From contig NW_015165240.1 of NCBI RefSeq assembly GCF_001447785.1, forward strand, positions 997,049 through 1,061,048: 64,000 nucleotides of DNA, given 5' to 3'. This DNA is from Gekko japonicus. Taxonomy: Eukaryota. Of this stretch, positions 4,646-60,300 are shown one piece after another (the stretch's first letter is position 1; every line of letters begins with the position of its first letter). The position numbers were made by a program, and so were the translations under genes. The notes under the pieces are model-generated. The model did not search any database, had not been told where the DNA came from, and saw only the letters and a list, made by a program, of their open reading frames with translations.

Positions 4646-5428
4646 CATACTTTAAAAGCATACTGATACAGCCTACTTTAAAAGTATAGGTGGAATTTTG
4701 ATTTAAGAAAAGTTGAAAGTTGTTGGGATGAAGCAGCATGTCCTATTTTTAGCTGAAAGAATTAAGCTGAATGCATTTTAACTTTGACTTAAACATTTTA
4801 ATAACAACATTCCAAGCCTCTAAATATGTATATCTGTTTCAACCCATGAGAAGGTAGCATTTGCAGCAAAGCCCTCTTGTTATATATAGCTGGCCACCAT
4901 GCTGCATAACTTGGTGGGGCTCACATGTTTTCCGTACAATCCCTTGCAGGAAGTGTAAAAAATTTGCATCTGACCTTATTTCCAAAAATATAAATGCAGC
5001 AAATTATGCACAGCTCAAAGACAAATGTCACTCGGAAGGGCAAGGCACCCTAGTAACAGGCTGATATAGCATGGGCTTCACTATGAAATTCTCTTCTGAC
5101 TCTCAAAACAGCTCACAGGGTTATACAGTGGTGGCAGGCTACAGCTATCAGCAGAATACCAATGGTGCATAATGAGAAAAAGCAGATTGCCCACATTACC
5201 ACTGCTTTGATGCAATATTTAAAAATGATGTGAACTGTAACAAAACTTGCAACATGTTTTTATCTAACTTACATTATGCAAACATGAAAAGAACTTTTTT
5301 TCTTTTTACTTAAGTCACTTTTTAAACTTTAGGCACATAATTCAGAATACTGGGTTTTCTTGTACCGTATTGTGGAGTTAATGCTGCTAATGGGGATAGC
5401 TCCATAATGAGAAAAATTGGGACTCATA

Positions 5429-5519
5429 GGGAATAATCTTAAGCAAGTCTACTAAAAAGTAAGTCCCATCCTATTCAATGGGGCTTACTCCCAGGAAAAT
5501 GTCCTTAGGATTGCTGCCC
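5429..5519. mobile_element. Small palindromic MITE
   Basis: Imperfect inverted ends (gggaataatcttaag / cttaggattgctgccc) and an internal agtaagtccca / tggggcttact hairpin. Confidence 0.55.
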
Positions 5520-5890
5520 TAGTCAGCTAGAGAACAGACTACACATAGGCTCTGTTCATGCAACTCTCTATACCAGGGTCTGGGAGACTAGAAATCTGTT
5601 TGGGCCACACAGGCTCCAAGTTGCTCTAACTATAGGTTCCATGACCCCTGAGCTATAGTTATCACACCACACTACTGGACATTAGCACCAAACACAGTTT
5701 GCCCAGCTCAGATACAGTGATTGGAGCAATCTAAAAATGGACAGAGGGATTGGCCTGCAAGAGGCATGAGGCAGAATGGAAAAAAAAACATCACAGCCAT
5801 CAGCATATTCCTCATACTGAAAAAACAAAACAAAACATGGTTTGGAACACTGTCTTAAGTAAGCTTCAAGTCATTTCTGAGGAAAGGGCA

Positions 5891-6015
5891 ATTTATTTAT
5901 TTTTATTTATTTCAGCTTACTACCCCGCTCTAACCCCCTAAGGGGTCTCTGCGTGGCTACAGTTACTCATTTATCCCTAACCTATGGCCACAATTATTAG
6001 GGGTGGGGGCAAGGA
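5891..6015 (-). repeat. Short retroposon 3' end with (TAAA)n tail; second copy at 18261-18400
   Basis: Near-identical cttactaccccgctctaa...ggctacagttac..cattatccctaacctatggccaca in both places, with (ttta)n on the + strand. Confidence 0.7.
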
Positions 6016-6469
6016 TCTATAAATTAATTTGCCATGGTGGAAATCCCTTCCGCCTTTGACAGCAATGTTTCCCTTGTCCCCAATTTCCCAGTGTTTCAGA
6101 AGCACTCCATCTTGGAAACACAAAGTCAAAGAGAAGACCCAATCCCTCTTCTGAACCTGGAAGTCAATGAAGAGGAAAAGCTGATCTCTGACTTTGTACA
6201 GTGCTTTGAAGGTATGCTGAAATTCAGTGCAAAGTCACAAAGACCCTGTTCCACCCCCAAATCTTCTGTGCATGCAAAGTGACTGGTGAATAAAAACCCA
6301 AGCCCAACCAAATTTGAGAACCTCTAAAACCAACTCCCCTTTATAAAATGTATTACAAAGAAACAGATCATTGAGAGAAATGAAGAGGCATAGTATTCAA
6401 AATAATATAGAAATATCTTTGGGTGTTGATTCACCCAGAATAGTGAGCATCTATCCTAGAACCAGTAAA

Positions 6470-6825
6470 TAGGGATGGCATGAACTAGCTCATGAAAGAA
6501 AGTTTGTGATTAATTTTGGCTGCTTTATGGTTTGCGAACTGAAGTTTGTGGCAGGTCAATCATTACAAACTTTCCACGAACTTTTAAGCTGCTCATGGTG
6601 GTTCGTAGCAGTTTGTGAATGGATACATTTCCAGACAGATTGTTTCTGCTAAAATAAAAAAAGTTTACTAAACTTCAAAGCAACAATTTCCCAAAGCAAC
6701 TTCAAAGCAACAGGTCCGTTGTGTGTTTGGTGTGTGTAGCTTGCACTTTTGAACCTGCCTCTGATATTTCCCCAAAAATCACTTTCCTGGGGGCATCTTC
6801 TTTGGGGGAGCCATCACTCAGACCT
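6470..6825. mobile_element. Terminal part of a decayed hAT-like element
   Basis: Begins tagggatggc with cgaac/gttcg-type subterminal motifs, matching the opposite-end motif at 60580-60688. Confidence 0.4.
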
Positions 6826-6827
6826 CC

Positions 6828-7202
6828 TTAGTCCAATCTGCACATAGCTTGGAGGGCATGTAGAGGAGCATCAGGGGAGGTCCGCTGCAAGTTTGGTGTC
6901 TCTTGCTTGCACAAGGTCTGTTCTGTACACCCATGAATCTCCTGAATGTGCACCCAAACCAAAAACCCAGGAGGAGCCAACTGGGAAAGAGCTACTGTTT
7001 CCCCTTCTTGCACCCAGGTTTCAGTCATGCACACCAGGTCTACTTTCTGCTTGCGCAGAAAGTCCCAAAGTCCCAAAGGAAAGTCCCAAAGGACCATGGT
7101 CTTATTATTTATAGACCTGGCATTACACAATACCAGTGTCAGAGGGGGGTTATTTCTCCTAGCCCCACTGCCAGCAGATGCACCTAGACTCAGTTTTGGC
7201 AC
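6828..7202 (-). mobile_element. L2/CR1-clade LINE endonuclease (ORF2 N-terminus) fragment
   Basis: LVLCNARSINNK...DLVCMTETW are APE endonuclease motifs I and II. Confidence 0.8.
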
Positions 7203-8297
7203 TCAGTTTTGGGTTGTATAATTATTAAAGATTCTATTTCCCACTGCACTAATTTGTTTCTTCACCTTTGTTTTGCCTTGGTGTGGCCCCCTTTTTCATA
7301 ACTCTTCTTCTCACCCAAATGATCAGCCTAATGATGCAGCCTTGAGATAGTCTTCACAGCAACTACATACACAATTTGTTTGGTGGGAAGTCCAAAACAC
7401 ACTACTCCATTTTAAAAAAACAGTAAAGACATTCTTGTAGCTAACCATTATAAAAAAGCAGGAGCATAACCAACATCAGAGATCAATTTCTGTATTTGCA
7501 TAGATTTCATGTATAACCCCCAAATCATGAATTGGTAGAAAATAAACAGTGCAAAAAAAGCAAGCCATTTTATGACGGGTCTAATGATATGCCTTACTGT
7601 TTGCTTTATCTTTAAAACTTATTTGTCTTGACCTCAAAATTATCTGGATTAGAATCTGAGCTTCCTTTGATGTTCAAACTAATTTAGCAATGCATGAAAT
7701 ATTTCTCATCTGCCACAGAATGTAGATACTTAAAAGCTCAAGTAAAGAAAGGAGATAAGCAGCTATGATTACACAATATAATCACACTGGATCATGGTGA
7801 TGTGTTACATTAAAGGGTTTCTGGAATCTTTAAATGCATTCAAAACTAAGACATTGCCAAAAAGGAAAAAAAGAGGAAATGTAGAATAACTGGTAGAACA
7901 GTCAGACACTCTAGACAGAAAGTAGCCAAGTACAGCAATAAATCATGCAACCTATACGACTGACACAGTGACTTGATCAGGGAAAATGAATTGCCATGTC
8001 CTGAGTGCAAAATATAATAAACCAAAGTGCCAAGAAATAGTCATATCTGCCCATAATAATTTGGAGTTGAAATATAATCAGAAGCAATATACATCGCCAA
8101 CAACATGAAGTTAAATTACCCATCATATAGATGAGTAATACAGCTACGCAGAAGCGAATACTTGCTGAGATGAGTTTGGACAACTACAGCAGATGCCCTG
8201 CTCTTACAATTTGATGCTCGTCATTGCAGAAAAGTAAATTCATTTGAGGGGAAACAGGAAAAGTGGCTTGTACTGTAGCTCACAAGATGTGCTTCTT

Positions 8298-8545
8298 AGC
8301 CCTGACCTGGATAGCCCAGGCAAGCCCGATCTTGTCAGATCTCAGAAGCTAAGCAAGGTCAACTCTGGCAAGTACTTGGATGGGAGTTCTCCTTGAAATA
8401 CCAAAGGTGAGAGGCAGGAGCAGGTTTTATTCAGCCACCTCTCTGAATATCCTCCAGTCCCCTAGTATGGGTCAGTCACCAGAGGTCACCATGACTTCCA
8501 GGTGCACACACACTCACACATGTACACACATACTCACATATGCAC
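8298..8545 (+). mobile_element. 5S rRNA-derived SINE with (CA)n tail
   Basis: gcccgatcttgtcagatctcagaagctaagcaagg...agtacttggatgggag matches 5S rRNA (box A/C region), followed by a non-5S body. Confidence 0.75.
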
Positions 8546-14985: not shown

Positions 14986-15770
14986 TTTATTTATTTATTT
15001 TATTTATTTATTTATCAAATTTATAGCTCGCCCTCCCCCGTAGGGCTCAGGGCGGCTTACAAAGGCAACATAACCTTGCTACAATAAAACTGAAAAGTAT
15101 GCAGACGGAGAGTGATTTCAGCTAAGCATACCTTTATTTAGTTCAGGACAAAGACGAAGGGACCAGCTCGCAGGCTGGTTATATAGGTTCAGAAAACCCG
15201 CCACCAAGTACACCTAAACACACCCCCTACTTCCGATAGGCTATTTACAGTAACCGGGCGACCATTGGTCTCCCGGCTGAGAAGCTGGCCCTTTCATTGG
15301 GCCGGCTAGGATCCTACGGACCCATTGTCTTTGGACATGAAGCTATTGAAGAATTGTGCCTGGCCAGCCCGGGCAAGTCCGGGCATGTCAGGCTGAATAC
15401 ATAACAAAAACATCATATACTTATAGTTTAAAAACATACTATACATATTAAAATCCCAGTCCTAATTCAGATAAAGTGCTCAGTATTCTTCAAGGACTTC
15501 AAAATCTGAAGATGACGGAACAATTCCAAAAGGTTCCTGGTAGACGGTCTAGGCTTCAGTGTTCGGGTGTTTTTTCTCAGGGCCTCTTCCAGCCCACCAT
15601 GGTGGTGATATAGTGGGGGGCGGCGGCCCCTACTCAAAAGCCTGGTGGAAGAGCTCCATCTTGCAGGCTCTGCGGGACTGCATAAGATCCTGCAGGGCCC
15701 GGATCTCCCCCGGGAGCTCATTCCACCAGGTAGGAGTCGCCACCGAAAAAGCCCTGGCCCTACTGGCTGC
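14986..15770 (-). mobile_element. 5'-truncated L2 LINE inserted into the DIRS
   Basis: RARAFSVATPTWWNELPGEIR...KMELFHQAF C-terminus, (TAAA)n tail, TSD cagttta at 14979-14985 and 15771-15777. Confidence 0.85.
15091..15406 (-). mobile_element. Solo LTR (316 bp) nested in the L2 3' UTR
   Basis: TG...CA ends, 5-bp TSD aaaac (15086-15090, 15407-15411), minus-strand TATA (~15180) and AATAAA (~15135). Confidence 0.8.
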
Positions 15771-15960
15771 CAGTTTAAGGCATCGGTTCCAGTGGCCTGG
15801 GTGTGTCTTGTCCTGGAGAAAAACTCTGGAACTTCCCAAGTGGCCTCTATCGCAAACAAGTCTATCTTTATTTCCACAAATCTGCCACATATCTGGTTGA
15901 AGATTTCCCTGTTCAGTGACCACTCTGACTGGTCCATCCTTCTTCTGCTGAGCCAGTCCG

Positions 15961-17400
15961 CCAGACCATTGTCTTTGCCTGCTACGTGTATCGCTTTCAG
16001 GGACAACAGATGGCTTTCTGCCCAATCCATCAGTTTGGACACCTCACAATGTAGAGATCTTACTCGGGTCCCTCCTTGCCGGTTCACATACGCCTTTGCG
16101 GTCATGTTGTCCATCTGGACAAGGACGTGCTGGCTGGACAGGTGCTTGCTGAGGTTCAGAAGGTCCAAGTGAATTGCCCTGAGCTCCAGGAAGTTTATAC
16201 TCTTGCGGGCCTCTTCTTTCGACCACTCCCCTTGTGTCATCAGACCTCTCAAGTGCACTCCTCAACCCGACAAACTGGCATCCGTTTTCATAATCGCTCT
16301 TGGAGGATCCCAAAGAGATGACCCATGCTTGAAACGGTTCTGTGCGATCCACCATGATCATTTCTGTCGAGTCTCTGTGGGGAGTAGCAGCAGCTTGTAT
16401 CTCTTGTGAGCAATTGCCTCCTGATGGGGAAGTAGGAAGTTCTGCAGGGGTCTGGCATGGAACCTGGCCCACTGTACTATCTCTTGGCAAGATACCAGCA
16501 TCCCCAGGAGTTTGGCTAGTGTCATTAACTCTGACCTCGGAATCCTCAACACTTCTGTCAAAAGGGACCGGATCTTTGATTCCCTGTCCTGGGACAGGAA
16601 AACCCGATCCTGAACTGTGTCTATCTCTACCCCTAAGTGCAGCGGCCTCTCAGATGGTTGGAGTCGGAGATGACTTTTTTCTAAGTTGACCATGAAACCA
16701 TGGTCCCTCAGGGTAGCTACTGTTAGCTGAGAGGTCCTCACGCTCTCCTGAAATAATGGAGCTGAGATTAAAATGTCATCCAGATATGGGAATAGGTGCA
16801 CACCTTTCAGCCTGAGGTGCACTACCAGGGTTACTAACACCTTTGTGAATACCCTCGGCGAGGACTTCAGCCCAAACAGGAGAGCCTGGTATTGGAAGTG
16901 CTGGTTGGCATAAGCAAAACGCAGGAACTTTTAGTAGGAGCCATGGATTAGAACACGCAGGTATGCTTCCGCCAGATCAACTGTCAGAAAATCTCCTCCC
17001 TGCAACACTGTCAGTATGGATTTGAGGGTTTCCATCCTGAACCTCCTGTCCTGTATGTGCCTGTTGAGCCACCTGAGATCTAAAATGGCTCGGATGTCCC
17101 CCTTTTTCTTGGGGACTGTAAAGAAAATTGAGTAAACGCCCTGCCCCCGCTGGGAGGGTGTAACACTCTCTATGGCTCTGATTTCTTGGAGATGTCGTAT
17201 GGCTTCCTTGGTTTGAAGATGTTTCAGATGGGTATGGTTCCTTGAAATCTGAACAACATGCTGTTGGGGAAAGGTGGAGAACTCCAGCTTGTATCCGTGT
17301 GTGACTGTCCGTAAGACCCACTGGTCTGTCATGGAGTGGATCCAGCAATCTGTGAAGTAGAGAAGTCTTCCCCCTATCCCCAACAGGTTCTCTTGCCATG
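15961..17400 (-). pseudogene. DIRS reverse transcriptase / RNase H (frameshifted)
   Basis: GGRLLYF..W, VPKKKGDIRAILDLRWLN, FPYLDDIL, SINFLELRAI, VQMDNMTAKAYVNRQGGT, NGLADWLSR. Confidence 0.95.
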
Positions 17401-17405
17401 TACAG

Positions 17406-19165
17406 TCATGCTGAGGCTCCCTTTTTTGGATTCTTGGTGGCAGATTGCTCTCCTTTGGATGTGGCAAAGGATTTGCTGCCATGTTGCCTAGACTGACATT
17501 TTCCTTTGAATGGTCTTGTGTAAGAGGGTTTCTGTCCCCTCTTCTGGTCTTGAAAGGGCTGAAAGCACTTTCTGGTTCTAGCATCTCTCTTCTTAGAGGG
17601 AAGGACCTTCTTCTTGTCCTTTTCTTCACTAAGATACCTGTCAAGCCCCTCTCCAAAGAGGTTCACTCCTTTAAATGGAACCGCCGCCAACTTTCCTTGC
17701 ACCAAGGAGTCCACGTCCCAGCGGCGGAGCCAATTGTTCCTCCATGCCGTTACACTGCACGCCAACGCCCTGGCAGAAAGTTGAAGCACATCCAGGGTGG
17801 CATCTACCGCAAAGGCCACCACGAGGGCGATCTTTCTTAGTTCATCCTTGAATTCTTTCGGAGCATCGCTGTCAGCTGAGGCCAGGTTTTGTGCCCAATC
17901 GTATGCTGCCCTAGCGAACAGTGATCCTGCCGTGGAGGCCTTAATTGAGGACGATGAGGCTTCAATGTTCTTACAAAGGGCTTGTTCAATCCTTCTGTTT
18001 GTGTGGTCCTTAGGCATTCCATCTGCATCCATGGGAAGCACTGAGTTGGAGGACAGGTTGGTAACAGGGTCATCCACCACTGGCAGCTTCAGTTTCCTGG
18101 TGGCCTCTGGCATCAGGGAATAAAACTTAGAGAAAAGATTATGGTTAGCCTTAGGTTTAGCCAGGAATTCCCACTCTGCCTTCATTATGTTGTAATAGGA
18201 CACTGGGAATGGCAACCCTGGTTGTGAGACCAAAAGCTTAGGTATCAGTTTGCCCGTACCTCTTTATTTATTTATTATTTATTTATTTATTGTTTCAACT
18301 TACTACCCCGCTCTAATCCCCGAAGGGATCTTTGAGCGGCTACAGTTACACATTATCCCTAACCTATGGCCACACTTTTTTCAGGGGTGGGGACAATCCC
18401 TACCGGCACCCAGTGGAGGGATTTTTTCTCTCTTGGGTCATCTGCGTCGGCTTCGGCGTCTCTCAGTTTCTCAGCGTCTCTCGGCCTCTGGCTTTCTTCC
18501 TGATGGTCTTTCCAGCGTCGGATCGGCTGTGCCCTTCTATCGCTCAGCGTGCTCCGGTGCGGCATTGGCTCTGTCCTTGCAGCTTTAGAACTCTGACTCC
18601 TATTCTGTTTCCTCCTTGGGCTTAGACGTGAGGTCTAGGGTCCTCAAGACCTTCGACAGGAGACGAGAGTAAAGCTCTTGTGGGAAGAGTCTGGACTGAA
18701 CCAAAGGCATCACTTCCTCCTCTTCCTCAGAAAGTTCTTCTTCCTCTTTTTCTGATGAAGATATGGTGGACTCAGACACTGGTTCACTATCCCCTAGCAA
18801 GGGGCTGTGTCCTCTGAAGACAGATTAATGCTTTTTTTGCTTAGGCCTAGAAGGAAATCTGGAGGTGCTAGAAGAATCATCCTCCTGGCTAGGTCTGGCC
18901 CACTTGGTAGCCCACTTGGTAGCCCTCTTTCTATAGGGGCTTGTGTAACTGAACCTTGAAGGGTTTCTCTGATCATGTCCTTAAACTCCTTTCTCATTTT
19001 GCCTCTAAACCAGTTCAGAAGCTGAGCTTTGTCTGCTTCCCTGTTTTCCTGGTTCAGTGGCTCCAAGCAGTCCTGTGAAGCCAGGGAGACTGAAATTTTG
19101 GGTAGGCTTAGATCCCCAAAGGAGCTTTCTTTCTCTTGGGAACAGCCTGGCTTAGCCTTATCAGA

Positions 19166-19233
<68 letters not shown>

Positions 19234-19234
19234 C
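17406..19234 (-). pseudogene. DIRS gag/ORF1 (LAP2alpha-like region), broken
   Basis: LPVVDDPV...PKDHTNRRIEQAL...ARALACSVTAWRNNWLRRW...PFKGVNLFGEGLD is typical of vertebrate DIRS ORF1; it lies upstream of RT. Confidence 0.85.
19168..19229. repeat. (CT)n/(GA)n microsatellite
   Basis: About 30 perfect dinucleotide units. Confidence 0.95.
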
Positions 19235-21593
19235 CTGTAGGGGAAGAGTGAAAACAAAACTAACTTCAGAAAAGTTGGAAAGAGAGGTGCCTGTGAAGGA
19301 GCCTAGCCCCTTTCTCTCTTCAGACTGGCTGCTTGGGCCGAAACCCCCTCCAAGGGACCCTGTCTGTCTGCCCAACTGAGCTGACTGCACTGGTTCTTAT
19401 CAGGCAAGTTGCTACTAATGGCCCTCTCCATGGGGACCACACGAGGAAAGGATCCAACATGGCCACCACCATTTTCCCGCCTCTGAATTTGTGCCTTTCC
19501 CCCCCCTTGGAGGCCATAATTCCTGCCTCCCAGGAACTCCCCCCCTATTTTCTCTCTCTACCCAGGAAGGGAGTCCTGGAAGACTGGCTCCTGGCAGCTA
19601 TCACCCCCCCCCCCAGGCTTTTCCCCATTCTGGGGGAAAGTAAAACAATAGTCTCCTGCATCACCTCCCTGTGTTCCCTTCCCAAAGCAGGCATCTACTT
19701 GGGAATAAGGATGCCTGTGGGTGGCCCAGGACCTTACCATGTTTCAGCCGGTTGGTAGAAAACTTTTCCTGTTGCGGTGCTGCCTCGCACGCTTCTGCGG
19801 CCTGATGGGGGGGGTCGGCTTTTCAGCCTCTCAATAGGCTGCTCCGCACTCCCGTGCCACTGCAGGAGCAGGCCCTCCACCCTCAGGCAAGTAAGGCTGG
19901 CAGAGGTCCAAGAGGGGCCAGCTGAGCTGCAAGACATCCAGGGACTACCTGGCACCAATGAGCTCCTGTGTGCGCCCCTTCTCTCTCTCTTCTCTTCTTT
20001 TCTTCTATAACTTCCTTCTTTCTTCTACTGGCTGTGCTCTGCAGCGCTGCCTGAGCACATCCTGCTACAAGGCAGGGTCGGCAAGAACTGGGGAAGGCTC
20101 CAGAGGATAAGCCCCTCCCTGCCTGGATCAAAGCTTGGAGCCAACCCTGTAGAGGAGGGAGGAGCTTATCCCAGATGTGAGGACTGTCCCACGATCTGAA
20201 GCACTGGAGAAAGAGGCTCTGGGCAGGTGCCCCGGCCTTGGGCACTCAGTATCAATTTGCTGTGGTGACCTCAGCAGGGTCCACCATTTTCTCCAGAGGA
20301 ATTGATCTCTGCTACCTAAACAACAGTAATTTTGAGTGATCTCCAGCCCTCACCTGGAGATTGGCAACGATGGTTCCCCAGAAGGGAATGGCTGGTTTGG
20401 AGGGTGGAGTCTATGGCTTTGTACCTATCCAAGGTCCCATGCTTCCTGAAACCTCAAACTCTCCAGGCTCCATCCCTCAAATCTCCAGGAATTCCTCACC
20501 TGGAGTTGGCAACCCTATCTACTTACCAGCCAATCATCAACCTACCTTTATTTTCCCCTCACTCTTCAGCTTTCCACCCCACACACATCTGAAGCCTCTC
20601 CCATGCTCTGAAGCCCTGACTGCTATGTCACATTGGCTGTCATATGGGGACCATCTCAGCAGGAGGATATAAGGACACAGAGTTCACAATTTTCTCCAGG
20701 GGAACTTATCTGTGCCATCTGGAAAGCAATTGTAATTCTGAGTGATTTCCAGCCCTCACCTGGAGATTGGCAACAATGGTTTCCCCAACAGGTACTAAGG
20801 GGAAATGTATTTTACCTCAGAATACATTTTACCTCAGAACAGCAACAGCAAACTGTTTAGAATGTTAAAGGCAAAGGCCAATCAAGTCGCACATGCAAAC
20901 GACCTCTGTGTTCGAAAGCAAAGGCCAATGAGGCCGCATATGCAAATAACCTCTGTGTTCTGACTGGCTATGGGGGTGAGAGGAACAGCAAACTGTTTAG
21001 AATGTTGGAGGCGAGACTCAACCAATGCAGCCAGTGGATAGGGACAGATTCTGCGTGACACACTAGGGCGCCAACAAATTCAGGAATGTGCGGAAAGTTC
21101 TGGAGAGTGCCACCACCAAAAGGCTTTTATATATAAGGAGAGATTATTTGTTCGCTGTTCAGGGGGACACCTGTAAAAACAAGGGAGCATGGCGAGTCCA
21201 GGTGGGGGCGGTAATTCAGCCGTGTGCATATGTGCAAAGCAATTTTTTTAAAAAAACATCGTGCTACTATCTAGACGGTGCCCAGAGTCTTGTCGCACAA
21301 TGCTTGTGGTTTGGGGAGGGATGTGTGATCATCTCAACCCGAAAAAAATATTCCCAATAGCAGGAACAAATAGCAATTAGCTTGCTGTGTGACCACAGCC
21401 TGAATTTTAATGGACCTACCATTTGTATAATGTCCAAGTGTTTAAAGCACTTCACATACATTACTTTGTTGTAATCTTCACAACAACCCTGCCAGCTGAT
21501 GTTATTATTCCTGTATTGGAGATGGAGGTAGATGTAGAGAAAGAGTAGGTTGCCTATGGCCACTTGGTGAGTTCGTGGCAGGGATGAGATTTG

Positions 21594-42597: not shown

Positions 42598-45500
42598 CTG
42601 TAAACAGATGTTTACAAACAGTATTGGTAAAAACCTATTTATTGCCAAGCAGAAAATAATAAACAAATTCTGACCATGCACATAACCCTCCCCTAAGTAC
42701 AATCCAATAAATGCACACAAATTCTTCACTAAATTCCCCAAGTGCTATTCTTGCATGGAAGCTATTTGTATGTCCAGATGGTATCTAAAATATTTGGATC
42801 TGCATTCTAAGAGCCTGTCAGCTGTATCTTGTTGTGCTCTTCACATATCACTGCTCTGAATCCTTCAATAATTTGCCTGGAAGCAATTCATATTTTATAG
42901 GCATTAGAGGTCCAAAGCTGAGTGTCTTAGGCTGAGAAGATTTTGCAGATTTTCTCTGCCACTCATGTATTGTCCTTTAATATTAATTTGAATCACCAGC
43001 AATCCTGACACCTGTCACGAAGAACAAGCCTCTCAACCTGGAAAGATACCATGAATTTGTAACTGACACATGCTGACTTAAGAAGAAAAGGCAATTTATC
43101 ATTTTTTAAAAGAATGTATAATACTAATAGTATAAAAAAAGAACTCTGACTGAGCTTCTTCCCTATTAAGGGTGTGAGGTTTAAGCATTTGCGACAGAAA
43201 ATCTTTGCACTAACTATAGTTAAAAATAGCTATGCAGAAAAAAATCGGATTAGAAGGGCAAAGTTTGCTGAGAACACACTGGAAGAAAATTCTAGTTCTT
43301 ATTTGACTTGGATGCCTGATCTCTGCAGACTGTGAAGGCAAAATCCACCAGGAAATTCTGTGAATAAGAGCTGCATGAGAACATTTACCAAGCCTTGTGT
43401 AGGACAGTGTCTCAGTGGATTGTGTCCAGAAATCTCAGAGTTCCTATTCTGTTCTTTTCTAAAGATGACAACATAATGAGTCACAAAGCAGGCATTCCTT
43501 TGTTACATTTGAGAGAAAAAGAAATGGTGGAATTTTGTTACTGCTGCATAATTTCAATGCATATGCTGTCAACAGGATGCTTCTAAAATGGAACTGCGTG
43601 CATGTCAGGTCAGGAGGCTGCTATGTACTTGAGGCTGGCATGAAGATAATACTGTAAGTGTTGTGACCAGCTAGTGTTCTGCAATCCATTCCCAAGTGGC
43701 ACTAAGATTCTTGGAGTATGACTACCTATGTTTACAGACCTCCTATGAAGAGAAGATTCATGTTCTCACAAAATCATTCAAAATGACTGTTCGGAATACA
43801 TTTTAAAAAACAAGTTTACTTTTTTACAGCTTTTGTAATTATTATTCAGTTGATATATCATTTCCCACATTGTAATTTTCCCTTTTAATTTTAGGTTGCA
43901 TTGGTCTTCTTCCCTTTCAGCAAATATTAGCTCAGTGGTGTTCAGACAGTCAACAACAAAACCCTTCTCTTTCTTTTGAGATAGAAGCTCTTGTAAGGCT
44001 AATTGCAATTTTTTAAAAAATTAAAGATTAATGAGTTACAAAGTTCACTTATGTCCCAGACATAGTCTCAAGAGGCTCACTGAAAGAAGGAAGAAGAAGG
44101 ACTACTTAGGTTTACAATATGCTTTAAGGTCCCCAGAGATGTACACTGGGAAAAAAGGTAACCAGCAAGAAGGCTAGAAATACCCCAGTGGTTTCTGTTC
44201 CAGGACACTTTAATCTGTTAGAGGCTCTATCTCCATCACAGCTGAAAGAGTCCTTGGAAGGGTCAATTAATTAGGATCTGAGGAACTGCATTTCCTACAA
44301 CTCTGATAAATTGCTTGATGACTCTTGTATCTTAGATGTGCTCCCTTTAAAAACTTGTAGAACCCAGGAGTGGGATGCAACATGCAAGATGATTCTCTGA
44401 CCAGATTAAGCTGCTGAGAAAAACAAGGGGAAACATGTTTATCATTTAACTGCTTTCAAAATTTCATGAATCATGGTGGGTATGCATCATGCTTAGGCCA
44501 ATCGTAATTGTTATTTCCTTTAATTGTAACCATCAACTAGACTTTCTTTCTACATCCCCTGCATATGCAACCCCCTCCCAAAAAAACACTCTTTTTCTGT
44601 GGATGGCTCTATTACCCTACTGAGACGTAAGAGATCATCAATCAAGTTTTGCTTTTAGAAATATTGCTTTGGCTTTGATATGATATGATTCCTGAGCTGC
44701 AGATTGGAGCTGTCCACACAATTTCTAAAAATAAACAAATGCAAACTAGCCATTGATGTCTTGTGCCTTTGCATCTTATTCCAGTAGTTTATTTCTCCAA
44801 AGCTGTTTCCTTTGCAGAAATTCCAGTTTAAAGCTCCCTGCCCTACCTTCCGAACAAAAAACACCCAGATTAATACAAATGCAAGAAATTTTTTACAAGT
44901 TTACATTCTACTGAAAGTTTTCCATGAATCTTTTATTTTAACTGAAGAATGCAGCCAAGAACAAAAAGCCTCATTAATGTAGAGATCTTTAAGTGTCTGT
45001 AAATTGGCCAGATATTTATTCTGGTAAGAGTACAGTTTACTCCAACACTGCTGTGTAGGGTTGCCAACTCTGGATTGGGAAATTCCTGGAAATTTGTGGG
45101 TGAAGCCTGAGAAAGCTGGGTTTGGGGAAGAGAAGGACCTCAACAGGTATAATACCACAGATTCCACCCTCTAAGCAGCTGTTTTCTCCAGGGGAACTGA
45201 TCAGTTGTGATTCTGGGAGGTCTCCTGACACCTAGGGTTGCCAAGCTTCAGGTAGTAGCTGGAGTCTCTCCCATGGTTACAACTAATCTCCAGGTGACAG
45301 GGATCAGTTCACCTGAAGAAAATGGCCACTTTGGAAGGTGGACTCAAAACCATTATACCCCATTGAAGTCCCTCCCCTCCCCAAACCCCACTCTCCTGAG
45401 GCTCCACCCACAAAATCTCCAGGTAGTTCTCAACCTAGAGCTGGCAACCCTATGTAGAACTCCAGGTATTTCCCAACCTATTATCTGGCAACTCCACTAA

Positions 45501-46591
45501 CAACCATACCAGTGCTGAGATTGCCTCACAGGCACTAAATAGAACAAGTCAGCACATGTCATTCTTAACTGAAAGGTTCAACTGCTAAAATCTATATGCC
45601 AATAAAGGTTGTGATGATGATGATGATGACGATGAACTGCTAAAATCAAAACTGAAAATAAAAACAATGTGAGCCCAACTCCCGCCGAGATTGCACTGGC
45701 AGGAGGGGGCTGAATTGCCTCCTCGAGAGGAGGATGAGTGGTGCCGGTGTAGCGTGAAGTGCAGCACCAGGCAGGGGGCAGAGCCAGCCTATTTAGGCTT
45801 GGCTCCTGCTTTCTGCCTCCGCAGTCCTTCAGCATGCTTGCAGGGGACAGAGCACGAGGATGGGGCTGCTGGCTTACTGGAGGCCTGCGGCCTAAGTAGC
45901 AGCAGCAGCCAGCTCGCAGCGGCGACGGGATCTCGGTGGTGAAATCGGCAGCTTCTGGCAGTGACAGGACCTTGGTAGTGGCCGCGGGGAGTGCTCGATG
46001 GAGGTGGTTGTGGCGGACAATGCTTGGCGGCAGCACGTGTCAGTGTGTGGCTGAGGTGGGCCCCTCTTCAGAGGCAGTGACCTTCAGCAGTGACGGCAGC
46101 AGTGAGCGTGCGGCGGTGGCCTGTTGTGCCTGGGGGTTTGCCGTGTCTCGGGGGGGGGGGGATTGATGGCTGGTGGCCTTAGTGGCAGGGGGTAAAGAAT
46201 TTTTCAAATGGGTCACCTGTAAGCTTGGCGGCAGGTTGGCAGACATTTTATAGTGGCAGGCGGCAGCCTACCTGGCTGGCTGGGGAGGTAGGACTCTCCC
46301 GCTCTTTTAACGGCCATGCTATGGCTGGTGCCCATTTTGTGAATACAACATAGTTGGGGCAGCGGGGTAAGGATGCTTCATACTTAGACTCTCCAGCCTC
46401 TTTAACCCCCCTCCCACCATCACCAGCAGATGCACAGGGCTGGTCTTATCGGAATTTATTCTGAAACAGAGGCTGGTTCGTTTTAGAGTGGTAGAAGCGA
46501 CGGGGATTGCAGTAGCAGCCATTTTAGGCATCTCCTGGTGGTGGCCATTTTGTGTCTTTCTATTGGGCAGCCATTTTAATTGCCAGGCAAC

Positions 46592-48389
46592 ATGACTCCA
46601 AAAAAGGGTCTTGGGGTTTCAAAAGGCAAACAGCCTGCCCCTAAATGGGTTGGCATGGATCCTGCGAAGGGCAAACAGCCCCCTCCCAAACTACATAATG
46701 ATGGGGCCACACCTTCTAGTCTTAGTGGCACAGCGCCTTTGGCAGTCACACCGGGTTCTATGGGGCATTTAATGCAGATAGGTATGGCTTCCACATTGGG
46801 CCCCATGGTGCCTCCTTCAATGGTGGGTGCCGTTTCCACTCAAGCAGTTTCAGTGCTTTCAGCCCCATTGGCCTCTGCAAATGCAGCCATGGCATCTGCT
46901 TCTTTGGCACCCACTGGTCCTATTTCACCTGCTCCCATAGATGCTGTTTGGGATAACCTGGTTAGTAGGGCCATATTGGAAAGGCTGGCTGCCATTGAGG
47001 AACACTGTAGGGGTGGGTGGGCGGGCAACCGGCTATGCTGCCCGTAGAGGTTTTTCAAGCCCAGTTGTTAATCCGCCTTTCTGCCATTGAAAGTAGGTCT
47101 GTGGGCACGGCTAGCCAATCTGTTGTTCTTGACTATGAGGAGGCACAACCAGTGGAGATGCAGGAAGTTCCAACTGTGCAGGCAGGCAAGGAACAGTGGG
47201 TGGTGCCTTATGGGGATCCGTTGCAGGCGTCAGGTAAGCCAGACTCTACACAACCATCAGGTATCGTTTGGCCATGGAGGCCCTGTAGGCCTGCAGATGT
47301 CTTCTGGGCAGTCTGCCCTGGCATCTACAGAAGGATCTTCGCCTGGTATTACAGGCATGCCGCCTACATCAGAGCCATGGGGGGCAGGGAATAGCCAGCC
47401 ACCAGCCAGCTGTGTGCCTTCAACTAACACAGTAGCATCCCAACAAGGTGGAGTGGGCCTTCAGACGTCTTCTGGGTCATCTGCCCCGCACCTATGAATG
47501 GATCCTTGTCTGGTCCTACAGGCGTCTCGCCTCCATCCTGGCCATGGGGGTCAGGGAATAGCCAGCTGCCAGCCAGCTGGGTGCCTCCACCTAGCATGGT
47601 GCAGTGCCAACAAGGCGGGGTATGGCCAGGGTGGTTTTCTCCTGGACAGGGCAGCAGGACATATGAGATGGTATCAGTGAAGGAATTGCCGTCTGGTGAA
47701 CTGGTGATGGCTTGGGTGACCATCTTACGACAGCCACTAGGGATAAAAAGGGGCGAGTATGTAGATGTCTTTTCCTTATTGTATAGAGAGCTTGACAAGA
47801 AGGATAAAGAAGACTTGGGCGAACGGGATAAGGAGCACTTGAAGCACCGCAGTGTAGACAGGATAGACACTAATTGGTATCCTGGCTTTTTGATTTATGC
47901 CGGGGTAATTGTTAGAACACAGCCTTGAGGGCCCCATCCCTGCTCCAATACATGGATATAATCTATAAGGGTTATTCTGACTTTACTGGGTCAGCATGGA
48001 TGGAGTATAAGGCTTTCCGTATGAAGGCGGCTATGTACCCGGCGCTTCGCTGGAATCATATCCATCCACATTTATGGATGCAAACAATGTCCCCAGCCAA
48101 GCCTGTCTTGGGGGAACATACTGACAGCGGACATGTCGTGCGGTGGGCTACTAACTATAATGCAGGAGCTCCACATTCCCAGGGTGGGCAGGCTGTTCAG
48201 AAACACCCTCTCTGTTGGGAGTTTTCCTCGCAATGGTATCGTAGCCGGAAAACATGCACTTTTCACCATGAATGCCCTATCTGTTCCAGCCCCCATTCCT
48301 TTCCATCCTGCCCCAAGGCCAAAGCCAGACCTGCTGCTAAGGATGGCAAAGGTGGCAGGGGCAGAGGGGGGGAGTCAGGCCTTACCTGA
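46592..48389 (+). pseudogene. Ngaro ORF1/gag-like (frameshifted), with a C-terminal Cys/His finger
   Basis: IKRGEYVDVFSLL, YMDIIYKGY..F.G.AW..Y..FR, CWEF..........CTFHHECPICSSPH....C; ~170-bp internal tandem duplication at 47280-47620. Confidence 0.8.
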
Positions 48390-49870
48390 CAAAGGGGCCC
48401 AGTCCAGTTAGAGTTTTGGTATTAGAGCGCTAGTTGCGCCTGTATCCTAAGTTTGCTAACAGGCAGTACTTGTTAGATGGGTTTAGGTTTGGTTTTCGCA
48501 TTTCCTATAAGGGTGAGCGGCGCCCCTTTTCAGCTCCTAATTTGCCCTCAGGTTGGAGCATGGAGCAGGTGGTTAGAGCCAAGATTCAAAAGGAGTGTTT
48601 AGAAGGTAGGGGTTTTGGCCCCTTTCCTTCACCTCCGGTGCCCAACCTGCAGGGATCACCTTTAGGTGTGGTGCCTAAGAAAGCACTAGGGGAGTATCGC
48701 CTCATTCACCATTTGTCTTACCCTCAGGGCAGATTGGTGAATGATGCGATACCTAGCGAGCTCTGTTGGTTAGGTACACTTCTTTCGATGAAGTGATCTG
48801 TATGGCCTGTGGTTGCGGGTAAGGGGCCAAATTGACTAAACATGATATCAAATCGGCCTTTCATCTTCTTCCAGTACATCCAGATGACTTTTTTCTTCTG
48901 GGATTCTCCTTTGATGGGCAGTTTTATATGGACAGGGCCCTCCTAATGGGATGTTCAGTGTCCTGCGCTGCATTTGAACGGTTCAGTTCCTTTTTGGAAT
49001 GGGCTTTGCATGCACACACAGGCTTGTTCAGTACCACCCATTATTTGGATGATTTTCTATTTGCTGGACCTGCTGGATCGAGGGGGGGTGCACAGTTGTT
49101 CTCCAATTTTGAGCAGTTGGCTGGGGAACTTAGTGTTCCTTTAGCTGCTGAGAAAACAGAAGGGCCTAGTGTGGTCTTAACCTTTCTTGGCATCGAGTTG
49201 GACACTGTGCAGCAGGTTTCATGCCTGCCACCTGATAAACTGGCTAACCTCCTTCCGTTGGTGAAGGATGCATGTATTGAAACCAAATTGACACTCAAGG
49301 AATTGCAACAGCTAATTGGGCACCTTAACTTTGCCTGCAAAGTGGTGGCCCCAGGGCATGCATTCCTGTGAAGGTTGTGTGATTCCACAATAGGCCTCAC
49401 GTTACCCAGGGGATTAGGGAGGATTTATTAGTCTGGTGAGACTTCCTGGCTTCATATAATGGGGTGTCCTTTTGGGGAAATGATCTCCAATTGGAAGCTG
49501 AAGTGCAGGTCACCTCTGATGCAGCAGGTTCTTTGGACTTTGGTGTCTGTTTTAGGGGACAATGGTGTGCTGAAGATTGGCCACCTGAGTGGATCCAGGC
49601 TGGATGGATGCGTGACCTGATATTTCTTGAGTTTTCCCCCATAGTGGTAGCAGTGTACATCTGGGCTGATGACCTTGCTAGCCAGACCGTTTACTTTTGA
49701 TGCAATAACTTGGTGACAGTACAAGTTATCAACTCACTAACATTTACGTCTCCTAGAGTGATGGCGCTGGTCAGGGCTTTCACCCTCCAATGCTTGCAGT
49801 ATAATTTATTGTTTAAGTCCAGGCATGTGCTGGGGGTCAATAATGGGGTCGCTGACACTCTGTCTTGAAA
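48390..49870 (+). pseudogene. Ngaro reverse transcriptase / RNase H
   Basis: SPLGVVPKK..GEYRLIHHLSYP, DIKSAFHLLPVHP, MGCSVSC, HYLDDFLF, FLGIELDT, TSDAAGS, LEFSPIVVA. Confidence 0.95.
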
Positions 49871-49875
49871 ACAGA

Positions 49876-50844
49876 TGGAGAGGTTTTGTCAGTTGGCTTC
49901 AGACTGCCGGTAAGAATGCCCAAGGACCTGTGGCAAATTGGAGGGCTGAGGCCAACAGGGCAATGGGCTTAGCTCTTGCCCCCAGCACACGTCGGGCTTA
50001 TATGAGAGCGGGCCAGCAGTTTGTGGCATTTAGGCAGCAGGAGAGCCTTCAACAGCTCTGGCCTATCCTGGTGTCACATCTGATTCAATTCTGCATGTCA
50101 TTGAAAGGTAAGGGTTTGTCTGTCCGTTCCATCCGGGGCAAACTATCAGCCCTGGCCTTTGCAAGCAAGGCCGAAGGTTTTAAGGATGACACTGGTGATT
50201 TCCAAATCAGAAAGATGTTGGAAGGCTGGGCCCAGGAAGATGGGATGCCTTGGGATATGAGGGAACCATTTTTCACCGCTGTTCTTAAGGGTTTGAGACC
50301 CCAATGGGCTTCCTTGTGTGCAGATGCATAAGAGACTGCCTTGTTTCATGCAGCTGCCCTGGTTGCATTCTTTGGGGCCCTGAGAATTTGTGAACTGGTG
50401 GTCCGATCCTGACAAGATAGGTCTGGATACGCACTTTGCCTTAGGGACGTTCAGTTTAGTGGGAATAGCCTGCATATTACAGTTAGGCGTTCTAAGACGG
50501 ACCAATTACGGAAAGGTGTAGTGGTGTCAGTGGGTCCTTGTTTGGATCAGGACCTTTGTCCTGTCACTGCACTCTGTTCCTACTTGGCTCTGAGAGGTGG
50601 GAGTGAAGGTTTTCTATTCCTACATAGGGATGGATCTCTATTAACAAAATTTCAGTTTTGGGCAATTACCAAGAGAGCTGTGGAGGCTTTGGGTCTTGGT
50701 AGTTTTCAGTTTGGCACTCATTCTTTTAAAATCGGGGCGGCTTCCACTGCTGCAGTTATGGGGTATCTGGCAGCTGACATTCAGAAACTTGGCAGGTGGA
50801 AGTCAGCACGCTACAAGATGTATGTCCAGACCTGCAAGGTTTAG
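49876..50844 (+). pseudogene. Ngaro tyrosine recombinase
   Basis: LAPSTRRAY, AFFGALRICEL, RRSKTDQ, LCPV, THSFKIGAAS, LGRWKSARYKMYV. Confidence 0.92.
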
Positions 50845-50940
50845 GCTTACCTGCCTTAAGCTTAGTATGACGGGGAGGATCCTTTCTTGTTCTGCCTGGA
50901 TGCCCTCCCCCCTTTGTTGTTAACTTGGTTCTTGTTTTAG

Positions 50941-51542
50941 GTGCTGCTGGTTGCCGTGGAAAGAGCTGGGTGCTTATCTGCGGCCTCAGCATGGTGCTTT
51001 GGGCCGCTCACTGAGCCAAGAGAACACACATTGGTTCCCAGTTGGGTTGCAGTGAGCGGGTTAAGGTCAAGTGGCTTGGCCGAAGAGGCATGCACTGGCC
51101 TGCGCTTATGCCGCTTTTGTTTGTGGAGAGGTGTGGTTTTCCTCCTGACGTGATTGTAATACACCTTGGCGGTAATGACCTGGGTCTTGTCAAAGCTAAA
51201 GCCCTGGTCATTCAGGCCAAGGCTGATTTGGCAGACATTGCTGACTGGTGGCCTGGGGTGCAACTGGTCTTGTCTGCAATGTTGCCATGCCAGGTGTGGC
51301 GTAGTCTAGGGGACCCTAAGTGCTTGGACTAAGTGAGCTGAAATGCCAGTCGGCAACTTAGAAATGCCATGGAGGGCAGTTCAAGACTCTTTTTGTTGCA
51401 CCCTGATATATGGGTCGAGTTAATGGACCTGCATAGGGGGGACGGGGTGCACCTCTCTAACAAGAGCAACAATATATTTCTTGCAGATTTGAGGTGAGGT
51501 GTGCTGTTGGTGCTGGATCACTTGGTGGGGGTGAAGGCCTAA
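50941..51542 (+). pseudogene. SGNH/GDSL hydrolase (esterase) ORF of the Ngaro element
   Basis: One frame carries VLICGLS (block I), GRRGM (II), HLGGNDL (III) and DGVHL (V). Four in-frame stops (three TGA, consistent with CGA decay) and no frameshifts. Confidence 0.85.
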
Positions 51543-51633
51543 GCAGAGGCTTGGTCTTTACTATGGTGGGGTAGCGCAATCAGGAAGGTGAAAATGGTGA
51601 GTGCCTGGGCATTGTTATAAAGGAATTAAAGGG

Positions 51634-51681
51634 TCCAAGAACGGCTCCAAGAACAGCTCCAAGAACGGCTCCAAGAACAGC
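51634..51681. repeat. 12-bp tandem repeat x4 (tccaagaacRgc)
   Basis: Directly visible. Confidence 0.9.
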
Positions 51682-52074
51682 TTTCGGACCTTTGCAGCTC
51701 AAGGCTGGGAAGGGGTGATCTTCCTTAGAACAATCTGGCCTGGCCTATTTTAGCAGGCCTTGTGGCTTTTGGGGTTGTGGGCCAGGGGGCTCCTAAATAT
51801 GCCAAGCTGCTGGTCGAGAGCTACCTTCATGGCTCGAGATCGGGGCAGGTGCATCGTCCAGAAGTACATTTCAGCACCCCCTCACTAGTTGTTTGATTAT
51901 AAATAGTTAATAAAGTGGCCCTTGTTAAATCCATATTGGTGTCCATCTCTTTATTCCGACTGTGGTGGCAATGTCATATTCTGCCGTATTTTGAGTTCTC
52001 ATAAGTATTCAATTATGTACATATCTTCAGAGTAGAATTATGAGATTGCTTGGCATGAACTCATGAAGGTCTTA

Positions 52075-57103: not shown

Positions 57104-57349
57104 ACCCCTTTCCACTGCATTTGTACAATTCACAATCACAACAGATGATCTCTTATTTGTACAATGTGTTCCACAAATGGAACCCAGAATTTTCACCTAG
57201 GGGAGCTTTGAATTTGGGTCTCAGGGGGCCAGGGTGTGTTCTGGGCATGCTTCTTTCCTTGCGGTGTGTGGCTGCCCTGACGTCATTGTGGGAAGCCCGT
57301 CGAACCTCCGGGAATGCCTGGTTCATGTATCTGCAGAGTAAAAGTATTT

Positions 57350-60300
57350 GCCACGGTGGATGGGTGCGCTCTGGACCCAGGTTCAGAGCTGAATAATACA
57401 CCCCTGTTGGTGGGTATGCTCTACACCTGTCTGTCCCTGCCCTAGCTAGTGGGTGTCTCAGCCAAGTACTCACATTTATTATACCCTTCCAGCTGCTGTG
57501 GGGGTACTTTTGGGAGCCCCCATCAAAACTCTGGTGGTGCCCGCCTTTCCATCTGTTCTTTGATCACTGGCTGCATTTGTTAGCCAGGGGAGGGGGGGGC
57601 TGTGAATGGATGGGTGCTCTCTGGTCCCAGGTGCAGAGTCAAATGATATACACTTGCCGGTGGATGTGCTCTGTACCTGTGTGTTTCCACTCTACCTTAA
57701 GGGTGCCTCTGTGGGGGTACTTTTGGGAGCCTCCATCAAAACTCTGGTGGTGCCTGCCTTTTCATTTGTTCTTTGTCCACTGGCTGCATGTTTCAGCCAT
57801 GGGGGGTGCTGTGAGCAGATGGGTGCCCTCCAGATCCAGGTACAGAGATGAATAATACACCCCCATTGATGGGTGTGCTCTGAACCTTTCTGTTCCCCCC
57901 TACCTAATGGGTGCCTTGGCTGAGTAACCACAGCCATTACATGCTCCCTGCTGCCATGGGCGGTACTCTGGTGAGCCCCCATCAGAAGTTTGGGGGTGCC
58001 TGCCTTTTCATCTGTCTTTTGGGTACAGGTTGCATGTGTCAGCCAGGGGGGGGGGTGTGAGTGGGTGGGCGCGTTTTTGTCCCAGGTGCAGTGTCAAATA
58101 ATACACTCTCATCAGTGGGTGGACTCTGCACCTCTTTGTTTCTGCCCTAGCTAGTGGGTTCCTCGGCCACATTCATTATACCGTCTGTGACAGATTGCAC
58201 ACAAAAGCAGGCTTTTTAAAATGCTGTTTGTGTCAGAGAGTCAGGGAGTTCATGAGTTAATCTTCCCTGGAGAGAAGAGCTTATGTGATTGGCTGCTCTA
58301 CTCTCTCTCTGATTGGCCATCATCAGGTGAGAGTGGAAATAGAACAGCTGATCAGGAGGCAAAAGATGTTTTTCACCTTTTGGTCTTTGTTTTGAAATCT
58401 TATGTCTCCAAAAGGATCAGTAGCCAAAGGATTTGGCTTCTAAGGGAAAAGACATTTGGGAGTCAGTATTTTCTGACAGGCAATAGTCGGAAAAGTACTT
58501 TTACAGAGAGAAGAAGGGAAACCCCATTGTCTAAATATATTAAAACTGCTCTGAGGGAGAATTTAGATTCTCAGTAAGGAAAGCTCCAGATAAGCCTTAT
58601 ACAAAGGATACTGACGAAGGATTTTGCAAAAGTTCTGGGATGTTAGAGTGGAATCCTATTCAAGGCAAACAGTAAAAAGATAACAACTTCCTTTCAGTGA
58701 AAGGGGTTGGGAAGAGAGCCCTGGTCTGTGATAAAGGGGAGAAGCTTAGACACCTCAGGAGTTAGTGAAAAAGTATAATATCTACAGGAAAACCTAGAAA
58801 TCTGAAGGAAGAAATCTAGAAACTAAGCAAATGCTGTCCTCCAGAAGAAACATTACTAAGAACTGTGTTAGTGCTGAAATATACCAAACAAAGCACCTCT
58901 CAAAGAGAAAAATACACTCTTGGATGTTCTAAGAATTCAGCTCTGTATATATCAAAAAGCTTTTACCTCAGCAATCTCAAAACCTTGAATACCCCTATTA
59001 TAACCTATTATAACCCTGCCTGTGTGAAAGGGGGGGGCAGAGGTATATTCGAAGATGTTTTCGAAGATGTTCTGAATCTCTCATGGAAAACACCTAAGCT
59101 TACATGCAGCAGAAATTCTTAAAATTCTTTGTACCACACAGAGCTTGCGTTAAGAGCTACACGGTAGATAACGGACAGGCGTTGGCAAAAAATAGATTTT
59201 AGCTAGGTGAAAAACAGACCCACCCAGGTAACGGAAAAATACTGAGAAGAACAAGGATGGGCCATGAAAAGGGGGGGGAGGCTCTGGGCAGGGGGAAGTT
59301 CTGATTGGAAACAGGTAGATTGTGAGGGGGGTGGCCAACCGGTTGCCCCAGCCAGCTAGGGGGTATAAATCTTTATGTACTGCGCCACAGCTTCAGAGAC
59401 GCTGGGGAACTGCTCTCCAGATTCTCTCCATGACTTGCAATTCATGCTTCAATAAAAGCTGTACTTGATAGAGCCTCCGTGTTGGATTTTCCTGCTTGAC
59501 TCGTGTCCGGTTAATTAAACATGTATCAGTGTAATAAAAATTTTATTCTGTTTTTGAAAGTTAATTTGCCTCAACTGCCATTTCACAAGGGTTCATAAAA
59601 CAGGACCAGCTCCTATCTTTCCCTCAAGTTCCTGTACTGGGTCTAAAGCCTAAACCAATATCTAAACAAAGGGTGGGACAGTTTCAAGTTTATATAAAAG
59701 AGAAAGAGAAGATATACATGCTACTGTAGGGCAACTCAGTCACTGAGGGGAACTGAAGATTTGGTGGGAAAAATCTGTCAGACAGTTGGGGAGATACAGG
59801 GGTCCATCATATCATCCCAGCTGCCTTGGGGGTACTTTTGGGAGCCCCTGTTAAAATTCAGGGGATGCCTGGTCTGCCTTTCTGACCCTCCTAACGTGTC
59901 TTTTTTAGACTTCAGGGGCAGCCCTGCCAGCTTCACATATGTTTCCACTTATCCACGGATTAGGAGTATTTGCTGTGGTGGATGGGTGCACTCCAGACCT
60001 AGGTGCAGAGTTGAACAAAACATCCCTGTTGGTTGGTGTGCTCTGCAGCTGTTTGTTTCCACTCTAGTTAGTGCGTACCTCAGCTGAATACCTTTCCATT
60101 TGTCTTTCATAAACTGGCTGCGTGTTTCAGTCCTTTGAACAACCACATCTGCTTCCTTATCTGTGAGTTTAGTGTCTCTAGAACCCCAGGGGTCTATTCA
60201 ATACACTCCTGAACCTGCACCTCATCTCCCCAGAAAACACTTTCCCGGGGGCACGGCCTGGGGGGGGGGGTAACTTGAACCTGGAAAATTCAATCCTTAT

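Follow-up and report, generated by a model that had tools for sequence, protein, structure and literature searches.

How can a retrotransposon express a reading frame that lies behind all of its other frames and has no start codon of its own? The question is raised by a decayed element in the genome of the gecko Gekko japonicus (assembly GCF_001447785.1, contig NW_015165240.1, positions 997,049 to 1,061,048 of the forward strand; this whole stretch of 64,000 nucleotides (nt) is called the window). The element belongs to a Ngaro-like family of retrotransposons that use a tyrosine recombinase (YR), lies on the + strand, and had its borders set by alignment with other copies in the same genome (G000). 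Its first open reading frame (ORF1) is followed by frames for reverse transcriptase and RNase H (RT/RH), for YR and, last of all, for an SGNH hydrolase. The original prediction, made from the letters of the window alone, was that splicing joins ORF1 to the SGNH frame and skips RT/RH and YR. The reading reached here, to which we give a probability of roughly 0.8, is that in this family the start of ORF1 is joined by splicing to the SGNH frame and, likely, to the YR frame too. Taken separately, the splice from the ORF1 donor to SGNH is very probable, and that from the same donor to YR is probable.

The features of the element on which the argument draws are as follows (positions are those of the window).

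45664..51973, + strand: decayed Ngaro-like YR retrotransposon, full extent; copies in G000 align from about 45661-45677 to 51971-51974
46592..47233, + strand: coding part of the proposed shared 5′ exon (ORF1-N), with basic N-terminus, two helices and flexible linker; one net frameshift here; ORF1-N profile match, E 6e-8
46970..46999, + strand: helix motif 1, AILERLAAIE, which fits RhxxhE as that motif is defined in the available text of PMC5940361
47062..47091, + strand: helix motif 2, QLLIRLSAIE, which also fits RhxxhE
47231..47239, + strand: proposed shared donor CAG/GTAAGC, phase 1; conserved, with the homologous site used in a mapped RefSeq model
47234..48411, + strand: rest of ORF1 (gag-like, with zinc-knuckle end), frameshifted here, proposed to be read from unspliced RNA only
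48390..49950, + strand: RT and RNase H, broken, limits approximate; PF00078, E 1.7e-8
49850..49874, + strand: probable second acceptor inside the RNase H end (branch-like CTGAC, CAG/AT), phase 1 into the YR frame; conserved, with RefSeq junctions in agreement
49875..50844, + strand: tyrosine recombinase exon, broken; PF02899 and PF00589
49875..49909, + strand: possible cassette exon, closed by the donor CCG/GTAAGA at 49909/49910; 35 nt here, 45 nt in most copies
50920..50940, + strand: non-coding acceptor region of the SGNH exon, with branch point, pyrimidine tract and AG, from sequence and conservation
50941..51542, + strand: SGNH hydrolase exon, from Pfam and sequence, with four internal stops; block I reads GLS here and GHS in relatives
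51909..51914, + strand: AATAAA, a candidate poly(A) signal near the 3′ end and the sole such hexamer within 51540-51980

In the proposed scheme, unspliced RNA would serve both as the genome and as the message for full-length ORF1. If the phase-1 donor is joined to the RNase H-end acceptor, an ORF1-N-YR protein would result; if it is joined to the one behind the YR stop, an ORF1-N-SGNH protein. Both enzymes would thereby carry the same N-terminal module.

The splice sites of the window copy are as originally described. The donor at 47233/47234 splits a Gly codon in phase 1, and the acceptor, with its TTAAC (50920-50924), pyrimidine tract and TTTTAG/G at 50940/50941, opens a frame that runs AAGCRGKSWVLICGLS ... 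HLGGNDL ... DGVHL to a stop at 51540-51542. That this copy is dead was also seen correctly: its SGNH frame is interrupted by stops at 51012, 51330, 51339 and 51495, the distance from the ATG at 46592 to the donor is 642 nt (phase 0), which implies a net frameshift in ORF1, and RT/RH and YR are broken. The two similar helix motifs that had been pointed out are both present, but they do not share a reading frame in this copy.

G000 has many relatives of the element: 606 candidates for the SGNH end came from DNA comparison, 40 of which were scored, and 2728 candidates from protein comparison, 150 of which were scored. The donor GT is kept in 24 of 28 aligned loci, including the window (30 were examined and two did not align), and a sister subfamily has it in 24 of 24 matches, of which some are identical. 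Exon 1 ends in phase 1 in each of the six copies that have an unbroken frame and also in L099, a less decayed locus of a sister subfamily; when all 19 mapped copies are taken, broken ones included, eight are in phase 1, six in phase 2 and five in phase 0. For the acceptor, 29 of 30 loci, the window again among them, retain the AG, and of 20 loci in sister subfamilies 19 have an AG in the same codon register (one reads N, and one becomes visible after a shift). These subfamilies share about 65-70% DNA identity with each other, and the tracts and branch sequences before their AGs differ. As the acceptor lies behind the YR stop, protein coding cannot explain why it was kept. Conservation of donor, acceptor and phase over genome copies had been put forward as a test of the splice, and the sites are mostly kept. 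Inside ORF1, behind the donor, an imperfect duplication of 167 nt was observed (window 47321-47621), which is common to some close copies.

These counts bear on an alternative that we consider unlikely: that unspliced RNA yields both YR and SGNH, through programmed frameshifting, reinitiation or an AUG of their own, with the splice-like sites being cryptic and the fused protein models of the databases reflecting occasional host splicing. Cryptic sites would hardly account for a non-coding acceptor held at one codon register across subfamilies of such divergence. For a start codon within the SGNH frame, the evidence is divided. The absence of an ATG ahead of the block-I serine, a premise of the original prediction, holds for the window copy but not for the family: 21 of 54 distinct copies, mostly of one subfamily, carry an in-frame ATG between the last stop and that serine, which favours an own start, and 33 of the 54 have no usable ATG, which argues against it.

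A second body of evidence comes from RefSeq proteins (P-numbers below). A profile of ORF1-N matches 32 of the 75 proteins returned by a search with the SGNH region; it was built from ten fusion proteins and L099, so that this and the following count are partly circular. ORF1-N-SGNH models were found in Elgaria, Rhineura, Anolis, Eublepharis, Hemicordylus, Heteronotia and Pogona, together with one Phrynocephalus model. The YR frame gave 429 matches, and 17 of the 120 that were listed begin with ORF1-N. Motifs of ORF1 from behind the donor occur in none of the 32 SGNH or 17 YR fusion models. Since a phase-1 donor supplies a G, the residue at the junction must have a codon starting with G. For ORF1-N-SGNH, the residue 16 before the serine, i.e., the position predicted from the window, has such a codon in 31 of 32 models, whereas the neighbouring offsets have it in 6-21 of 28 models of a hand-picked subset; for ORF1-N-YR, the residue 25 before a conserved Trp, as predicted from G000, has one in 17 of 17, and other offsets in 0-12 of 17. 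Occasional host splicing would not be expected to place junctions on the same codon in several genera. The ORF1-N-YR models are about 460-530 amino acids (aa) in length and the ORF1-N-SGNH models about 325-420 aa; their current RefSeq names are "uncharacterized" or "xerD homolog". Two other long frames, of 826 and 1546 aa around SGNH matches, were due to runs of N in the assembly and were rejected as fusions.

The exon structure of one model was followed on the DNA. P0001, an isoform of gecko DUSP12, maps to contig C7384 of G000 and uses the homologous ORF1 donor and SGNH acceptor around an intron of 2934 nt. In this region (loci L093 and L156), a Ngaro-like copy lies within an intron of DUSP12, and models from two gecko genera (P0001 and P0002) splice it to the phosphatase. 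Because the SGNH frame is open in both models and its catalytic His is replaced by Leu in both, an old insertion common to the two genera is suggested, and possibly exonisation. Among frog proteins, several SGNH and YR models (P0072, P0073, P0178 and P0005) have long N-terminal extensions; those of P0072 and P0073 have no clear homology to ORF1-N (E 0.059) and were set aside. The Xenopus protein P0005 has two SGNH domains in tandem.

The third line is RNA. A look-up of RNA runs that contain the window sequence gave none. Four sets, X1-X4 (three raw runs and one set of contigs), were aligned to the window; most of their reads are less than 90% alike. Reads joining 47233 to 50941, which the original prediction had called for, were not found in X1-X4 on the window copy. 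When L099 was used as a second target, a joint from 3457 to 6932 appeared in one raw read (X3) and in one contig of depth 10.6 (X7). It skips 3474 nt, and the intron predicted for L099, 3461-6934, is likewise 3474 nt; the 3-nt offset would be expected of a copy with CAG at the end of exon 1, as seen in several sister-subfamily matches. This junction is exact but thin. Other long joints on the window are off the predicted sites, and three on L099 (5974 to 6971, 5958 to 6767 and 3329 to 7779) mismatch the predicted sites; all may be diverged contigs and were not counted. Each of the four sets also contains reads from an SGNH family that is more distant and apparently expressed; these reads match the window only at 51144-51184. 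At 51634-51681, in the 3′ region, there is a short tandem repeat of 12 nt at which reads of other copies skip 33 nt. Thus, with sites kept across subfamilies, a sister-subfamily RNA junction that has the predicted length, and RefSeq fusions at the predicted codon, three independent lines support the ORF1-N-SGNH product.

The YR frame was drawn into the argument by isoform X1 of an Elgaria RefSeq gene, which has an extra exon from the start of YR and led to the second acceptor at 49874/49875. Of 27 copies, 26 retain its CAG (one copy is without flank), and 11 of 12 sister-subfamily copies retain the AG. Taken alone, this retention is weak evidence, because the CAG doubles as a Gln codon, and Gln codons elsewhere in the family are almost as invariant. 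What points to one 5′ exon likely feeding both YR and SGNH are the ORF1-N-YR models and pairs of isoforms from the same locus, with neighbouring accessions, that have 139-177 residues in common and then continue into either YR or SGNH: XP_067323906/907 and XP_067323425/427 in Anolis sagrei; XP_053114245/247, XP_053105766/768 and XP_053113214/215 in Hemicordylus; and one pair in Pogona with 167 residues in common. The proposed skip of RT/RH and YR therefore stands as a splice from ORF1 to SGNH, but not as a simple skip, for the same donor likely serves YR as well. This second phase-1 acceptor and the YR fusion are new beyond the original prediction.

The likely spliced origin of YR stands against the published expectation, that of Poulter and Butler 2015 as quoted in the available text of PMC13003380, that YR is probably made by programmed frameshifting. 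A canonical slippery heptamer (X_XXY_YYZ) was found in none of the 36 RH/YR overlaps searched, which counts against frameshifting. A conserved phase-1 AG that could act as a third acceptor, for RT, was absent across 33 copies, and in-frame Met codons are common there. A second donor GT lies 45 nt behind the second acceptor in 29 of 36 copies, at a site that is also a Val codon of RNase H, and three RefSeq models have a short exon starting at the second acceptor, as the possible cassette exon would require.

Several observations weigh against the reading in favour of splicing. The in-frame ATGs in part of the SGNH copies have their counterpart in YR, for which many RefSeq models begin at their own Met and are about 292-305 aa in length, as a YR made from its own start would be. 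Within the family of the window, Gln and Gly codons elsewhere vary hardly more than those at the splice sites, so that a synonymous-codon control inside this family does not discriminate. The support from RNA is thin, which favours frameshifting or own starts: X1-X4 have neither read depth nor a junction over ORF1 of the window (46028-47739); the L099 joint is absent from X1 and X4, and comes from one read and one contig, the latter from a set (X7) only guessed to be RNA, with the joint flagged "between: not known"; and 15 of 17 L099 joints include none from the donor to YR. The RefSeq models are automatic, P0001 being the one whose exons were checked on DNA, the ORF1-N counts share the circularity of their profile, and the Hemicordylus family to which P0057 belongs has its junction 21 codons ahead of the serine instead of 16.

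Could the joined forms exist as DNA, i.e., as internally deleted or processed copies that yield reads and models without splicing? Internally deleted copies do occur in G000 (L017, L030, L148 and L164), and the joined reads were seen without a DNA-run control. Against this, the intron ends are missing at none of 28 + 24 donor loci and 30 + 19 acceptor loci, isoform pairs from a single locus need both downstream exons in the DNA, and P0001 spans 2934 nt of element DNA; moreover, a deletion exactly at GT..AG would itself imply an earlier splice. This origin is very improbable. Splicing may, on the other hand, be real and mainly dampen the element, by removing RT from part of the RNA, the fused proteins being by-products. 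In some other retroelements, splicing lowers the level of genomic RNA, and by analogy the same may happen here; the transcripts seen also stem from decayed copies. A by-product, however, needs neither two acceptors in frame with the donor nor catalytic motifs kept in 24-25 of 25 fusions, and we regard dampening as improbable too. Splicing as the route to functional fusions remains the preferred reading, and active elements would depend on the fusion products.

What would these products be? A structure prediction, suggested with the original prediction, was run on a natural fusion, P0020, and gave a confident SGNH domain and two N-terminal helices: AlphaFold2, with 25 sequences, returned a mean pLDDT of 75; residues 36-54 and 72-94 form helices, residues 149-336 a domain modelled with confidence, and the linker is disordered. 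The domain resembles SGNH hydrolases (Foldseek E 4e-7), and the model superposes on PAF-AH 1bwp with a Z of 19.6 and a root-mean-square deviation of 3.4 over 184 aligned residues; by sequence, the best solved relative is the esterase of ZfL2-1 ORF1p, 4C1B (E 1.4e-6). The alpha/beta fold and the residues of blocks I (Ser), II (Gly), III (Asn) and V (Asp/His) that define SGNH/GDSL hydrolases are present, and among natural fusions GHS is kept in 25 of 25, GxND in 25 of 25 and DGxH in 24 of 25. The retrovirus-like envelope mode of expression, in which a spliced RNA removes pol and expresses a 3′ ORF, agrees with the thinly supported junction of a sister subfamily and with the mapped RefSeq model. 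The product itself is an SGNH hydrolase fold with a basic N-terminus, in which no envelope or transmembrane part was seen.

ORF1-N has no Pfam match, and the fold search barely covered it. At least one RhxxhE motif is present in 22 of 25 fusions and two copies in 15 of 25; RhxxhE is the trimerisation motif of L1ORF1p in the available text of PMC5940361. A three-copy complex prediction of the helix region scored 0.02 and gave no answer. Self-assembly of ORF1-N and lipid binding of the esterase are suggested by these motifs and by comparison with ZfL2-1 ORF1p. That the basic N-terminus and the two RhxxhE helices bring the enzymes together with full-length ORF1 into a particle has, in our estimate, about an even chance; that the esterase acts on lipids like the ZfL2-1 enzyme may be put slightly below that.

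The classification of the element rests on domain content and order: RVT_1 (PF00078), Phage_int_SAM_1 (PF02899), Phage_integrase (PF00589) and Lipase_GDSL_2 (PF13472). RT/RNase H with a tyrosine recombinase instead of a DDE integrase, in the order ORF1, RT/RH, YR, is the pattern of Ngaro (order DIRS), and an SGNH hydrolase ORF behind YR (PF13472) is an optional trait of an amphibian Ngaro subgroup. A methyltransferase behind RNase H gave no Pfam match, and the YR frame opens inside the RNase H end, leaving no room for one. Split direct repeats (A1-ORFs-B1-A2-B2) were not found in the window copy, which also counts against the reading; they were seen at one of 40 long loci (L095, of a sister subfamily) and at none of eight further loci. 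As these repeats are missing and the class rests on domain content and order, the element is called Ngaro-like, not a confirmed member of the Ngaro superfamily. The nearest named proteins are from gecko. L095 is the sole long locus with an internal end-plus-start copy resembling a split direct repeat (2395-2786, 7621-8052 and 8346-8406). Internal deletions that keep the 5′ end together with SGNH or the 3′ end were observed at L017, L030, L063, L148 and L164, with breakpoints off the splice sites.

The closest described elements are DIRS-53_XT and DIRS-54_XT of Xenopus, which, in the available text of PMC9210276, have the same order of ORF1, RT/RH, YR and SGNH, no methyltransferase and overlapping frames; DIRS-54_XT, like the window copy, is without split direct repeats. 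They are amphibian, their hydrolase is without proven function, and neither splicing nor introns are mentioned in that text; in the lizard family, by contrast, acceptors in phase with the ORF1 donor open both the SGNH and the YR frame. A protein of similar design is ORF1p of ZfL2-1, a long interspersed nuclear element (LINE) of the CR1/L2 type. As far as the available text of PMC3905857 goes (PDB 4C1A and 4C1B), it too has a predicted helical self-association module, a poorly conserved linker and an SGNH domain with intact catalytic motifs; its esterase is active, binds liposomes and sits behind the coiled coil. ZfL2-1 ORF1p is one contiguous ORF1 and dimerises via an antiparallel coil, whereas the lizard fusion would be made by splicing, with an N-terminus common to ORF1 and the recombinase and with two short RhxxhE helices. 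ORF1p of LINE-1 likewise has a positively charged N-terminus and two RhxxhE trimerisation motifs (PMC5940361, available text); the likeness is one of motif, homology is not implied, and the long coiled coil, RNA recognition motif and C-terminal domain of LINE-1 ORF1p are absent here.

Other retroelements are known to use subgenomic splicing. In retroviruses env, and in foamy viruses pol, is expressed from spliced subgenomic mRNAs beside unspliced genome RNA. Plant Ty1/Copia elements have a spliced subgenomic RNA, the short gag RNA, in addition to the unspliced RNA (PMC5580714, available text). Here, unlike in these long terminal repeat retroelements, a coding exon of 125-220 codons would be joined to either of two enzymes, of which one is the recombinase that integrates the element. 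For YR retrotransposons such splicing is new as far as the literature search reached, in line with what the original prediction had supposed. The full-text search found no description of spliced Ngaro products, though Poulter and Butler 2015, Poulter and Goodwin 2005, Goodwin and Poulter 2004, Repbase entries and supplements could hold an earlier mention; the available texts of PMC9210276, PMC3783388, PMC4157794, PMC9341512, PMC7192593 and PMC8547959 do not mention them.

The window holds three further features of note. A second YR-type element lies at about 15470-19396 on the - strand, with a LAP2alpha domain (E 2.5e-16), RT (E 5e-10) and a DIRS-like pattern. Just upstream of the retrotransposon, at 45056-45452, there is a short element with terminal inverted repeats of 40 nt, with similar sequence at several other loci. 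A degenerate array that repeats every 209-250 nt occupies 57328-58169, and part of another copy is found near 59800-60000.

For the downstream frames of YR retrotransposons, which overlap and often lack an AUG, the question of expression gains exact and testable junctions from this lizard family. If both proteins are ORF1-N fusions, then work on the recombinase or the esterase by itself would deal with truncated proteins. The esterase fusion would also be convergent with the coiled-coil-esterase ORF1 proteins of LINEs. Transcripts of such elements would account for dozens of lizard RefSeq genes now called "uncharacterized", and the DUSP12 models of geckos illustrate that strong splice sites of an element can capture host exons. 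More tentatively, and with the odds somewhat against it, alternative splicing of one ORF1 exon may be a general Ngaro route to recombinase and esterase, in which the exon would act as an assembly tag and its RhxxhE helices would load both enzymes into the ORF1 particle at a ratio set by splicing. The esterase may then give the particle a membrane or lipid function reached independently of the CR1/L2 LINEs.

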